The notes: generated by a model from the sequence alone, not told the origin. Shown: positions 551-62,482, numbered from the stretch's first letter. The stretch: 64,000 bases of DNA from an uncultured Iamiaceae bacterium (GCA_963743955.1 CAVURR010000014.1:241081-305080), one strand, 5' to 3'. Numbers and translations: made by a program.

Positions 551-658
551 CGATCCGCCGTCTCGGCGCGCTCGACACGCGCGATGAGGCGTGACGGGCG
601 CGAGCGATGCGCTCCACGCCCGGCGCGATGGCGACGTCGGCTCAGGTTCCGATCGCGG

Positions 659-1436
659 CTACGGTGAAGCGAGCGACCGCTCGGCGCCGTACTCGGGCGT
701 GGCCGCGAGCTGCATCGCCAGCCACAGGTCGTCGCGCTGGAGGCTCAGCTGGCCGGTCCAGAACGCGAGGGCCTCCGGCTCCGGGGCCTGCCGAGCATCT
801 CCTGGAACACCTCGGTCACACGGGTGCGGCGGTGCTCGGGCGACTGGTACAGGCGCAAGGCGGCGAAGACGGGGCCCTTCGTGGCCGCGACGCCGGTCCA
901 GTAGGACGAGCCGGCGGGATCGGGGTCCGTCCGATCATGTCGGCGAAGACGCCCTCGACCCACGGCCCGGGTGCGGCGGCGTGGCGCGTTCACGTACTCG
1001 GTGGATCCGTACACCCTGGCGTTGACCCACGCCAGCGAGTAGCTGGGCGTAGATCGTCGTGTTCACCCAGTACCGCACGCCCTCGTCGTCGGGGGCCCGC
1101 TCGAGCGCCTGGTCGTAGAGCTCGGTGACCTCCTGGGTGATGTTCTCGAGGCCGTAGGCGATCTCGCCAGCCACCCGCCAGCGGGTCGGCGCCCGTCCGC
1201 GAGCGGTCCGACGTACCCCGGGAGCGTCTCCGCGGTCGGCTCCCGTCGACGAGGTCGACGTGGACGGCGCGGACGAAGAAGGCGTCCTCCACCGGCCCGG
1301 CGCCGGCCGGCGACGTCGGGGCGACCAGGGCGACGAGGGTCGCGACGACGAGGCTGGCGGCGAGGGCGACGAGGCTCTGCGGCCGTCCGACCCGACCCCT
1401 CGGGCCTCGGCTGGCGATGTGGGTGCGCACTGACAT
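659..1436 (-). pseudogene. secreted DUF4214-repeat protein, reconstructed across at least 3 frames
   Basis: ATG at 1436 followed by a signal peptide (SLVALAASLVVATLVALVAPTSPAGAGP). DUF4214 motifs TELYDQALERAPDDEGVRYWVNT, VFQEMLGRP and ALAFWTGQLS occur in three different frames. Stop TAG at 659-661 on the minus strand. Confidence 0.5.
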
Positions 1437-1554
1437 CGAGACCTCCCGCGGTCGTGGTCGGCGGACGGTACCCCGGTTCGACGGAGGGCGCGCCTCGACC
1501 GCCGCCGGCCGGCGGTCAGGTGCCGGCGAGGCGCTGCGATCACCGGGGCCATGG

Positions 1555-2471
1555 CGTCGAGGTCGTGGAGGGCGATGCCGATCGATGCCGATGCCGAAGC
1601 GCTCCCGTCGGGCGACGAGGTCGTCGGCGATCTGCTCGACCGACCCGCACAGGGCGTGGGGCGACTCCAGGGCCTCGGCCGGGCTGAGGCCGAAGCCCTC
1701 GGCGAGGAGGTCGGCGGTGCCCTGCCGGTCGTCGGTGACGACCACCAGGTGGATGCGGGTCTGCAGCTCGATCGAGGCGAAGCGGTCGCCGGCGGCCTCG
1801 CGCACCCAGCCGATCTTGCGCTCGGTCGCGTCGGCGGTCGCATCCGGTCCGGCCGAGGCGTCGATGACCCCGCCGGGCAGCGAGGGGTTGAGGCCGACGA
1901 TGTCGGCGTGGCGTCCGGCCAGCTCCAGGACCTTGCGACCGCCGCCCCCGATCACGATCGGCGGATGGGGCCGCTGCACCGGCTTCGGGCTGCCGGACAG
2001 GCCGTCGATCCGGTAGTGCTCGCCCTCGAAGTGGCACGGACCCTCGGAGAAGAGGCCCTTGACCACCTGGACCGCCTCCTCGAGCCGGGCGATGCGCACC
2101 CCCGGGCGGTCGAACGGGATGCCGGCGTGCTCGTAGTCCGAGGTCATCCACCCGGCACCGAGGCCGAGCTCGAAGCGACCGTCGGAGAGCACGTCGAGGG
2201 TGGCCGCCTCCTTGGCCATCACCGCCGGGTGCCGGTAGTCGTTGCACAGCACCATGGCCCCGACCCGCAGGGTGGTGGTGGCGTCGGCCGCGGCCATGAG
2301 GGCGGCGATGGGGGCGAGCTGGTCGTCGAGGTGGTCCGACACCGTCATGCGGTGGACGCCGAGGTCCTCCAGCCGGCGGGCCAGGTCGCGCCAGGCGGTG
2401 CGGCCGACGTCGGTGGGCGACGAGCACTGCACGCCGAAGCGGAACGGGGGGAGGGCGGTGGTGGGGATCAT
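1555..2471 (-). CDS. LLM class F420-dependent oxidoreductase (luciferase-like monooxygenase)
   Basis: N-term MIPTTALPPFRFGVQ, motifs LRVGAMVLCNDYRHPAVMAKEAATLDVLSDGRFELGLGAGW and VEQIADDLVARRERFGIG typical of the Rv2161c-like F420 LLM family. 3' end approximate: the in-frame stop is missing and a GGCATCG repeat sits at ~1580. Confidence 0.7.
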
Positions 2472-59862: not shown

Positions 59863-61069
59863 ATGCCCGAGCCGTCCGACCCCGTCGATCCCACCGTCGT
59901 CACCCCGCCCGTCGCCGACGGCCCGACCCTCCCCGCCGGCGCACCCCGGCCCACCGGCTCCGGCCGCTGACGGACCCGCGCCCTCCTGGTGGGGGGCGGG
60001 TCCGCCCCAGCCACCGACCGCCGACGCCGCCGTCGCGGCGGGCGGGTCGGCGGGGGACGGGGGAGCGGGAGGCCCCGCACGGCCCCGCCGCTCCCGCGCC
60101 CTCGTCGTGGCCGCAGCCGTCACCGCCGTCGTCGCCCTCGGCGGTGGCTTCGCGGTGGCGGCGACCCGCGGGGACAGCGACCAGGAGGTCGCCGCGGCCG
60201 GCTCGTCCGACGAGGGCACCGCCGACGGCGGTCGCACCGACGGCTCGGGCGGCGGACAGGTGCAGGCCCCGTCCGGGCATGGGCGGCACCCGCGGCACGA
60301 TCGCGTCCGTCGACGGCTCGACGGTGGTCGTCGAGACCGAGGACGGCAGCTCCGTCACCGTCACCACCTCCGACGCCACCGTCGTCACCGAGACCCTCGA
60401 CGGCGACCTGGCCGACATCGAGGCCGGCGACGAGATCACCGTGGTGGGCGAGGAGGCCGACGACGGCTCGGTCGCCGCCTCCCGCATCGTCGACAGCGGC
60501 GGGCTCGACGTCGGCGGGATGGTGGGCGGCCCCGGGATGGGCGGCGCTCCCCGCGGCGACCTGCCCGACGGCGCCACCCCGCCCGAGGGCATGACGCCTC
60601 CCGACGGGATGACCCCTCCCGACGGGATGACCCCTCCCGAGGGATGACCCCTCCCGACGGGATGACCCCGCCCGAGGACGGTGACGTGCCCTCCGGCGCC
60701 ATGCCCGGCGGTCGGGGGGTTCGGGGCACGGTCGAGTCGGTCGACGGCTCGACGATCACCCTCACGACCGAGGACGACGAGACCGTCACCGTGACCACCT
60801 CCGACGACACCGAGGTGTCGGTCACCGTCGAGCTCGAGCTCTCCGACCTGGCCGAGGGCGACACCGTCTCGGTCCAGGGCGAGACGGGCGACGACGGCTC
60901 GGTCGCGGCGTCGGTGATCCGCCGGGGCGACCTCGACTCGATGCCCGGCGGGTTCGCCGGCCCCGGCGGCGGGATGCCCCCGGGCGCGGGCGGCACCGAC
61001 GACGGCACCGACGGCGGCACCGACGGGTCGGACCCCTCCGGCGGTGCGACCACCACGACGGAGGCCTGA
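59863..61069 (+). pseudogene. Pro-rich N-terminus, single-TM protein with two DUF5666-like beta domains and a (GMTPPD)n linker, at least 3 frame changes
   Basis: ATG 59863; TM ALVVAAAVTAVVALGGGFAVAA. Repeat A: GTIASVDGSTVVVETEDGSSVTVTTSDATVV...GDEITVVGEEADDGSVAASRI. Repeat B: GTVESVDGSTITLTTEDDETVTVTTSDDTEV...GDTVSVQGETGDDGSVAASVI. Confidence 0.55.
60588..60676 (+). repeat. five tandem 18-nt units encoding GMTPP(D/E), one unit 17 nt long
   Basis: gggatgacccctcccgac repeated. The fourth unit reads gagggatgacc where gagggcatgacc is expected. This creates the frame change at 60645. Confidence 0.8.
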
Positions 61070-61072
61070 GCC

Positions 61073-62482
61073 GTGCGCCTGCGCTCCCGTCACCCCGATC
61101 CCGCCGGAGGCGGCGGTGAGGCCCCGACACCCTCCCGCCGCCTCCGGCGTCGCCGGCCCCTGGCCCTGGCCGCCCTCGTCCTCGTCGTGCGCCCTGACCG
61201 TCGGAGCGTTCGTCGCCCGCCGCGGCGACGACACCGAGACCGCGTCGGCCGCCGAGGGCGCGGAGGCCGCCGAGCAGCTCGTCGAGGTCACGTCCGGCGC
61301 GGTCAGCGAGACCGTCGACGGCGAGGGCACGATCGAGCCCGAGACCACCTCCGACCTCTCGTTCGGGTCGTCCGGGACGGTCACCGCGGTCACCGTCGCG
61401 GTGGGCGACACCGTCGCCGCCGGCGACGCCCTCGCCACCATCGACTCGGCCGAGCTCGAGGCCGACCGGGCCGACGCCCAGGCCTCCGCCGACGAGGCCG
61501 CGGCCGCCCTCGCCGATGCCGACGGCGACTCGACCGACGCCGAGGTGGCCGCCCTCGAGGCCCGGGTCGCCACCGCGAACCTGGCCCTGGTCGAGGCCCA
61601 GCAGGCCGTCGACGGCGCGACCCTCACCGCGCCCGTCGCCGGCACCGTCACCGTCGTCGACTACGCGGTCGGCGACGTGCTCGGCTCCTCCGGCGCCGAC
61701 GGCTCGTCGCAGTCCGGCTCCGACACCCCGTCGGGGGCCGAGATGCCGTCGTCCGACGACGACACCGCGCAGGGCGACACGAGCACGACCGGCATCCAGG
61801 TGGTCAGCACCGGGACCTACACGGTCAGCATCGACGTGCCGGTCGCCGACGTCGACCAGGTCCAGGTCGGCCAGGAGGCGCTCGTCACCCCGACCACCTC
61901 GTCGAGCTCGTCGTCGTCCAGCGGCGGCTTCGGCCCCGGTGGCTTCCCGGGCGGTGGCATGCCCCCCGGCATGCTCGGGGGCGACACCTCCGACGGCTCC
62001 GACACCGGCTCCACCGACGAGGCGACCGCCTCCGGCGACCAGGTCTCGGGCCTGGTGACCGAGGTCGCCGCGGTGGCCGACACCAGCTCGGGCGTGGCCA
62101 CCTTCCCGGTGGAGATCACCGTCGAGGGCAGCCCCGATGCCTTCTTCCCCGGCGCCATCGCCGAGGTCGAGGTCGTGGTGTCGCAGCGCGACGGCGTGAT
62201 CCAGGTCCCGGCCTTCGCGGTCACCACCGCCGACGGCGCCTCGACGGTGACCGTCGCCGACGGCGATGCCCGCGAGGAGCGCACCGTCGAGGTGGGGGAG
62301 ACCAGCGGCACCATGGTCGAGATCACCTCCGGGCTCGTCGCCGGCGAGCAGGTCGTGGTCACCATGCCCGGCCGGCCCGACGCCGCGGACGGCGTCGGGC
62401 GGCATGCCCGGCGGCATGGTCACCGGCGGCATGGCCCCCGGGCGCCGCCGGCTCGGACGCGGCCGAGGAGGGGGAGGGATGA
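61073..62482 (+). CDS. HlyD/MacA-type periplasmic adaptor of an ABC efflux system (apparent frame changes near 61190 and 62400)
   Basis: GTG 61073, TM LALAALVLVV. Lipoyl/beta-barrel core translated by hand in the next frame (SGAVSETVDGEGTIEPETTSDLSFGSSGTVTAVTVAVGDTVAAGDALATIDSAELEAD...TLTAPVAGTVTVVDYAVGD). Gly/Met-rich tail; stop TGA 62480-62482 overlaps the next ATG. Confidence 0.65.
   Translation: MRLRSRHPDPAGGGGEAPTPSRRLRRRRPLALAALVLVVRPDRRSVRRPPRRRHRDRVGRRGRGGRRAARRGHVRRGQRDRRRRGHDRARDHLRPLVRVVRDGHRGHRRGGRHRRRRRRPRHHRLGRARGRPGRRPGLRRRGRGRPRRCRRRLDRRRGGRPRGPGRHREPGPGRGPAGRRRRDPHRARRRHRHRRRLRGRRRARLLRRRRLVAVRLRHPVGGRDAVVRRRHRAGRHEHDRHPGGQHRDLHGQHRRAGRRRRPGPGRPGGARHPDHLVELVVVQRRLRPRWLPGRWHAPRHARGRHLRRLRHRLHRRGDRLRRPGLGPGDRGRRGGRHQLGRGHLPGGDHRRGQPRCLLPRRHRRGRGRGVAARRRDPGPGLRGHHRRRRLDGDRRRRRCPRGAHRRGGGDQRHHGRDHLRARRRRAGRGHHARPARRRGRRRAACPAAWSPAAWPPGAAGSDAAEEGEG

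Follow-up and report, generated by a model that had tools for sequence, protein, structure and literature searches.

A 64,000-nucleotide stretch of DNA from an uncultured Iamiaceae bacterium (GCA_963743955.1, CAVURR010000014.1:241081-305080; hereafter the window, with positions counted from its first letter) carries reading-frame breaks in many of its genes, and these breaks are not a biological feature: the genes are to be read as intact. We are confident that the breaks are artefacts of some kind rather than mutations in a living genome. A fundamental question is how such artefacts came about, and the explanation that we favour, with confidence a little better than even, is collapsed strain polymorphism, in which the alleles of close relatives would have been merged into one consensus. 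The gene that bears most directly on this question is meaA, which encodes ethylmalonyl-CoA mutase (6264-8307, - strand) and is the most heavily broken gene of the window.

The G+C content is 74% throughout the 64 kb, and because long open reading frames (ORFs) fill all six frames at this composition (288 ORFs of at least 80 amino acids, with long ones in every frame), ORF lists alone are uninformative. Frames were instead assigned with a codon-usage hidden Markov model (HMM) trained on the window itself, which segments the sequence into six coding frames and non-coding DNA, and each junction between segments was classed according to the upstream frame, which either ends there in its stop codon or does not. 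This procedure resolved 77 frameshift-like junctions (1.20 per kb) and 26 ordinary gene boundaries, such as those at 27343-28615 (AHSA1, ArsR, AHSA1) and 47683-48684 (SRPBCC, TetR); on these same-strand frame changes the first-pass annotation of this DNA is corrected. As a control, the same HMM and rules were applied to syntenic loci of relatives with intact genes, where the rate of frameshift-like junctions was 0.23-0.33 per kb at three complete-genome or large-contig loci and 0.68-0.72 per kb at two shorter metagenome-contig loci. Since these rates lie well below that of the window, about 58-60 of the 77 junctions represent real breaks, located in roughly 28-30 genes, which agrees with the earlier count of at least 25. 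The direction of the shifts is also unequal in the window, with 58 of +1 and 19 of +2, and is balanced in all controls.

That the segments on either side of a junction belong to one gene is visible at the level of protein domains. When adjoining same-strand segments were concatenated and scanned with Pfam, the MeaB domain (profile 2-239 of 273) ran continuously over the junction at ~3098 and MM_CoA_mutase (profile 43-512 of 512) over about ten junctions. Junctions were likewise crossed by B12-binding, CopC, CopD, ECF sigma, PAS, HisKA, ApbE, DUF222 and ABM domains and, in the exopolysaccharide operon, by the nucleotide-sugar dehydrogenase N-terminal domain, GT2 and polysaccharide deacetylase. 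The pervasive breakage described at first pass is thus borne out, and a frame change was found at each of the sites singled out there (~3095, 5283-5290, 32675, 60642, 61190 and 62400).

The breaks are strongly clumped, as had also been claimed, with a dispersion index of 4.2 (chi-square p = 7e-14). Gaps of 7.2, 7.1 and 6.7 kb contain no event, each with p ~2-3e-4 under a uniform rate, and the longest of these extends from 36301 to 43517; meaA alone holds 16 events in 1.8 kb (p = 1.5e-9). Two stretches previously listed as clean, 13995-19612 and 37710-43506, are indeed clean, and a third can be added at about 26640-32650. Large genes that occupy a single frame were confirmed with Pfam, including the Band 7 protein and the PhoX core. 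Base composition was considered as a cause of the unevenness and rejected, because within the window G+C is lowest in the densest block (0.706) and average in the clean blocks.

What kind of lesion produces these breaks? For the less conserved genes, events were counted with our own frameshift-aware protein-to-DNA aligner, run with the proteins of relatives, since plain BLASTN indel counting was too noisy at 70-80% identity. Pinning the inserted base by ties in amino-acid score against a single reference was also tried and set aside as unreliable at variable residues. The reference-supported events comprise 34 one-base insertions, five two-base insertions and seven one-base deletions (p = 2e-6 against parity, binomial), and no frameshifting event exceeds 1-2 nt in size. 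By the same frameshift-aware alignment, the SpoU, flippase-like and cyclase genes carry no frameshifts, and the region 13998-19612 shows no consistent frameshift against 3-5 references. A nanopore-type profile, in which deletions equal or outnumber insertions, was not seen in these data: insertions exceed deletions by 39 to 7, or about 5.6 to 1, and +1 shifts exceed +2 shifts by 58 to 19.

The lesions can be read most precisely in meaA. The first-pass annotation had named a mutB gene here, and had argued from its central place in metabolism against pseudogenisation; the mutase is in fact meaA (ecm) of the ethylmalonyl-CoA pathway, the stretch 3564-6094 belongs to a secreted lipoprotein gene, and the metabolic argument was built on the misidentified gene. 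The assignment is based on Pfam and on the best homologues, which carry the name meaA, belong to Iamia and further Acidimicrobiales and are 82-84% identical to a rough reconstruction. At the nucleotide level the gene is 87-89% identical to three relatives, so the events are directly visible: 14 one-base, three two-base and one three-base insertions, and one one-base deletion. Every one-base insertion is a G or a C. In 12 of the 14 the flanking bases differ from the inserted base (for example CC to CGC, or GG to GCG), such that extension of a run is possible for only two, and in 13 of the 14 the inserted base adjoins a wobble base and differs from it. Random insertions simulated in the corrected gene adjoin a wobble base in 45-55% of cases, which gives p = 2.5e-4 to 2.7e-3 for at least 13 of 14, and are expected to fall in a non-homopolymer position in 39-49%. 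The 12 non-homopolymer G/C insertions place at most one base in the slot between codon positions 1 and 2 (p = 0.012).

The inserted bases in meaA also resemble natural variants of the gene. Both bases occur among the three relatives at five of the wobble sites. At 6858 a two-base insertion gives AGTCG, where one relative (L081) has AGC and the other two (L082 and L085) have TCG, all of them serine codons, and AGTCG is the exact shortest common supersequence of AGC and TCG. The sole deletion, at 7781, has taken out a wobble base for which one relative has C and another has G. Third codon positions of the corrected gene are 99.4% G+C, and for this reason natural wobble variants in meaA would nearly always be C versus G. 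This third-position bias is extreme even for a genome of 74% G+C.

Insertions of the same appearance occur in other genes, among them GCA+G (GCG in a relative), C+TTG (Leu CTG/TTG), C+AGG (Arg CGG/AGG), GGT+C, CCC+G in YcnI, GTC+G at 5290 and GGG+C at 62397 and 62440. A smaller set of sites is compatible with runs or repeats, namely 60642 (a base missing in the GMTPPD repeat), 32675 (a GAG repeat), 62440 (a C5G3 context) and 4476. The earlier statement that breaks fall in homopolymers or short repeats is therefore correct for a few sites, such as 60642 and 32675, but does not describe the 12 meaA insertions discussed above.

Could the broken genes nonetheless be genuine pseudogenes of an Iamia-like bacterium in reductive evolution, in which broken genes lie among intact ones? 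Decaying genomes of the Mycobacterium leprae type do place multi-frameshift genes next to intact ones, the lesions here are strongly clumped with the densest block on meaA between clean neighbours, and no universally essential gene is among those broken. Other features speak against decay. Once the extra bases are skipped, the aligned broken genes are colinear with their orthologues over nearly their full length, with zero in-frame stop codons in all aligned genes and no larger deletions in any of them. Bacterial pseudogenes are deletion-biased and carry indels of many sizes, and the bias found here is towards insertion. The dense block at 680-1590 extends over a gene boundary, and the inserted bases have the look of alternative synonymous alleles rather than of slippage products.

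Neutral decay with up to 18 frameshifts per gene should also leave many substitutions regardless of codon position, and the selection signal was read with this expectation. In meaA, 22 of the nucleotide differences unique to the window fall at codon position 1, 20 at position 2 and 64 at position 3, a distribution shaped like that of two intact relatives, and the corresponding amino-acid changes number 38, against 39 and 32 in those relatives. Four-way protein comparisons of private changes were made for four broken and three clean genes. Among the broken genes, the window has 7 private changes against 12, 18 and 40 in the dehydrogenase, 33 against 36 (the other long branch) in meaA, 6 against 5-9 in YjbR and 11 against 3-9 in the trypsin-like protease; among the clean genes, it has 24 against 17-27 in the flippase-like protein, 19 against 6-16 in SpoU and 45 against 22-31 in the cyclase. 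The broken genes are no more diverged than the clean ones, and their purifying-selection pattern over codon positions, like the third-position bias, is intact. Decay with such a signal would require a ratio of indels to substitutions far above any that we know of. Because there is no excess divergence, no nonsense codon and no larger deletion, and because insertions predominate, genuine pseudogenisation is very unlikely. The earlier preference for assembly indels over genome decay is upheld on these grounds, and the comparison with related genomes, proposed at that time as a check, argues in the same direction. Programmed FRAMESHIFTING was weighed and then rejected, as were programmed ribosomal frameshifting and transcriptional slippage in general, given up to 18 shifts per gene and orthologues that are single intact ORFs in five relatives.

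If the breaks are artefacts, what process would write the alternative base beside a wobble base? We hypothesize that reads of at least two close strains, or of collapsed near-identical copies, were merged in one contig by a consensus step that splits each mismatch into one insertion and one deletion. Where the merged sequences differ, in most cases at a synonymous C/G wobble, both alleles would then sometimes be kept in tandem, resulting in a +1 or +2 insertion, and more rarely neither would be kept, resulting in a -1 deletion. The density of errors would track that of local strain polymorphism, which varies from place to place in bacterial genomes, and clean stretches of 6-7 kb would be those in which a single haplotype was present or the haplotypes were identical; under allele merging, the patchiness of polymorphism would thus account for riddled genes beside clean stretches, an unevenness that uniform read noise explains less well. 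Support comes from the block at 680-1590, which ignores a gene boundary by running past the DUF4214 gene into the last 70 nt of the luciferase-like gene. The DUF4214-repeat proteins and the DUF222/HNH gene belong to multi-copy families, and such families rank with the most heavily broken genes, which would be expected from a collapse of near-identical copies or strains. There is a precedent in collapsed-haplotype assemblies, for which the HiCanu paper describes how collapsed allelic variation gives a mosaic consensus and may bring frameshifting errors into coding sequence (PMC7545148). These assemblies share with the window small coding indels, the lack of a decay signal and a patchy distribution of the kind that polymorphism density would give; in the assemblies the indels lie where allelic variants were merged (PMC7545148), as is proposed here. 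They differ in that the source here would be bacterial strains in a population or metagenome rather than a diploid genome, and in that we infer the second strain and the merging of two haplotypes from the shape of the insertions rather than from reads.

A less probable but serious alternative is error of a generic kind that persists in an assembly made from noisy long reads, or otherwise poorly polished and of low coverage. Random or context-dependent one-base insertions would outlast the consensus step at a density set by local read depth or the success of polishing, and a second strain would not be needed. Homopolymer indels are the usual description of long-read consensus errors, their effect on gene calling through frameshifts is well documented, and short-read or reference-based polishing is needed to remove them (PMC9262707). 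The window resembles nanopore, 454 and Ion Torrent assemblies of this kind in that single-base indels cut genes short all along the contig. The restriction to small indels, the strong bias towards insertion and the lack of a biological decay signal would all be accommodated, as would the sites at 60642, 32675 and 62440 (C5G3) that lie in runs or repeats. The differences are that most of the pinned events are non-homopolymeric, that insertions predominate and that what is inserted is the other strong base of a wobble site. Residual noise does not readily explain why 12 of the 14 best-pinned insertions avoid homopolymers or why 13 of the 14 lie beside a wobble base, and chance would hardly produce AGTCG as a merge of two natural serine codons. 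Moreover, no excess of substitution errors is seen in the densest block, and 16 events in 1.8 kb beside 7 kb with none would require very sharp changes of depth within one contig. Of the first-pass proposal of an uncorrected long-read assembly, the artefact is retained; the homopolymer type holds only in part, since the best-resolved events are non-homopolymer G/C insertions and the deletion-biased profile typical of nanopore data is absent.

Several observations weigh against allele merging. The CC to CGC and GG to GCG events, taken by themselves, have 0 of 8 in the slot between codon positions 1 and 2, for which p = 0.13, so a technical error driven by this sequence context is possible and remains compatible with noisy reads as the source. 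The densest block matches meaA rather neatly, the coding sequence being clean for 1.1-1.4 kb to either side, and taken by itself such a match is what a gene-specific process would give. Outside meaA the wobble pattern is weaker, at ~12 of 19 insertions, with references there only 59-85% identical at the protein level. No sequence of the same species was found in the collections searched, where the best protein identities were 84-90% (for example 90% for the clean flippase-like protein, 87% for the dehydrogenase and ~88% for corrected meaA). Finally, the tandem-allele failure mode rests on general knowledge of consensus methods of the directed acyclic graph or partial order alignment type.

Two further explanations carry far less weight. 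The sequence might not be a direct assembly at all but a consensus of a multi-genome alignment, an assembly merge or an artificial perturbation in which differing columns were concatenated. The same signature of both variants kept would be expected, and no identical protein or 30-mer was found in the public collections searched: an exact 30-mer of meaA had no match in the Joint Genome Institute (JGI) metagenomes, and an exact-protein look-up of the SpoU ORF returned none on record. This origin is nevertheless improbable, because Iamia synteny recurs here in a coherent and natural variant, long regions are flawless and nothing else looks synthetic. Least probable of all, the inserted bases could be real, in which case dozens of very recent frameshifts in an uncultured Iamia-like actinobacterium would have arisen by an unusual kind of mutation, the insertion of the complementary strong base at wobble positions, with some thirty genes lost almost at once, before substitutions could accumulate.

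These results have practical consequences. The contig needs re-polishing or strain-aware re-assembly ahead of annotation, pseudogene counts or metabolic inference, and polishing with the same reads would probably be no remedy for sites at which alleles were merged. The shape of the errors offers a cheap, read-free diagnostic that would tell artefacts of strain collapse apart from both homopolymer errors and real decay, based on insertion bias, non-homopolymer context, an alternative allele beside the wobble base and no relaxed selection.

The organism belongs to the Acidimicrobiales and is Iamia-like. Synteny with the window was seen in Iamia majanohamensis, Iamia sp. SCSIO 61187 and three relatives from metagenomes, and the gene order in common is SpoU, cyclase, YjbR, MFS, meaA, meaB and luciferase-like oxidoreductase. 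In the Iamia relatives meaA and meaB are adjacent, whereas here a 2.5 kb gene for a secreted lipoprotein (3564-6094, -) separates them. Also unlike the Iamia relatives, a cluster of YcnI, CopCD, anti-sigma and ECF sigma genes (8366-12134) sits between meaA and the MFS gene; one relative has these cluster genes too.

The individual genes are described here in order along the window. On the - strand, a DUF4214-repeat protein at 680-1379 has ~6 frame changes (HMM segments, junctions and Pfam DUF4214). It is followed by a luciferase-like (F420-type) oxidoreductase at 1519-2450, with one-base insertions at ~1535 (GCA+G) and ~1588, confined to its 3' end (frameshift-aware alignment to L081), and by the MeaB GTPase at 2467-3437, with a two-base insertion at ~3091-3095 where TCGAC replaces one codon of the relative (Pfam, alignment to L081). 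The secreted lipoprotein, to which no function was assigned, is read in three frames with shifts at ~4476 and ~5290 (GTC+G). Beyond meaA, YcnI (DUF1775; 8366-9112, -) has a one-base insertion at ~8629 (CCC+G) and a one-base deletion at ~8556 by three-frame reading and Pfam. The CopC-CopD fusion (9195-10900, -) has 3-5 frameshifts (~10731, 10613, 9907 and 9648; Pfam, alignment to L083), and the anti-sigma factor of the zf-HC2 type (10915-11510, -) has insertions at ~11345 and ~11050 (Pfam, alignment). In the ECF sigma factor (11591-12134, +) the break lies between regions 2 and 4, at ~11909-11924, and Pfam Sigma70_ECF crosses the junction.

The YjbR-family protein (13432-13813, +) has a one-base insertion at ~13516-13519, where alignment shows CTTG for CTG in relatives; six of six reference proteins, from five loci, support it. 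This frameshift yields a single ORF of 532 amino acids (12233-13831, +) that appears to fuse an MFS transporter to YjbR, and automatic annotation would name it a fusion. The clean block that follows (13998-19612, -) encodes the adenylate cyclase, the SpoU methylase, the flippase-like protein and a PAS-GGDEF-EAL protein (Pfam). A trypsin-like protease (20533-21227, +) has a one-base deletion at ~20645 on which three references agree, and a PAS-GGDEF protein (21267-22806, -) is shifted at ~22523 inside its PAS domain (Pfam). A secreted esterase-like protein (23930-25737, +) has three C-terminal DUF4214 repeats and shifts at ~24665 and ~25325 (Pfam, junctions); DUF4214 repeats thus occur in two separate proteins (680-1379, -; 25326-25737, +). 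An AF1763-type lipase (25747-27170, -) is read in three frames with shifts at ~26146 and ~26638 (Pfam, junctions), and its domain set of alpha/beta hydrolase, Lipase_C and AF_1763-like_C is that of the Archaeoglobus AF1763 lipase, here in an actinobacterial genome.

Past the third clean stretch, a histidine kinase (32817-34175, -) is shifted at ~33309 inside HisKA (Pfam) and an ApbE flavin transferase (36177-37096, +) at ~36301 (Pfam). The clean block at 37710-43506 contains a P-type ATPase with a C-terminal hemerythrin (37710-40118, +), an alpha/beta hydrolase (+) and a GH65 phosphorylase (41101-43506, -), all by Pfam. Among the matches listed for the universal MVGDGIND motif, relatives of the same length as this ATPase are 45-66% identical and come from Acidimicrobiia, Alphaproteobacteria, Chloroflexia and one Nitrosotalea archaeon; the best of these matches, at 66%, is not syntenic. 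Horizontal spread is suggested by the lack of synteny around these relatives.

A small ABM monooxygenase (44412-44710, -) is read in three frames (Pfam, junctions). The DUF222/HNH endonuclease (45978-46941, -) has five frame changes, four of them at junctions crossed by Pfam DUF222, and a homologue of this gene lies at a different position in a relative (L083). In the PhoX phosphatase (48878-50382, +) the N-terminus with its twin-arginine translocation (TAT) signal is in another frame, with the shift at ~49100-49124 (Pfam). The only tRNA gene of the window, tRNA-Lys(UUU) at 52586-52661 (+), is intact by the tRNA model with one non-standard pair. The anticodon stem does have a U-C pair at its top, which is the mismatch reported at first pass, but this is no evidence of error, since the gene scores 67 bits against a threshold of 29.

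The exopolysaccharide operon (54434-59547, -) was read by alignment to L086, P0241 and P0242 and with Pfam. It has two insertions in the dehydrogenase, four insertions and one deletion in the GT2 synthase, one deletion in a 33-aa ORF, four insertions and two deletions in the polysaccharide deacetylase and one insertion in a 197-aa protein. A DUF5666 repeat protein (60098-61066, +) is shifted at ~60275 and has a one-base deletion at ~60642 in its GMTPPD/E tandem repeat. A HlyD/MacA-like membrane fusion protein (61160-62476, +) has shifts at ~61190, 62397 and 62440 (GGG+C). The GMTPP(D/E) tandem peptide repeat (60590-60680, +) has an 18-nt unit and lies between the two DUF5666 domains of this secreted protein, the gene for which sits just upstream of the HlyD/MacB transporter genes.

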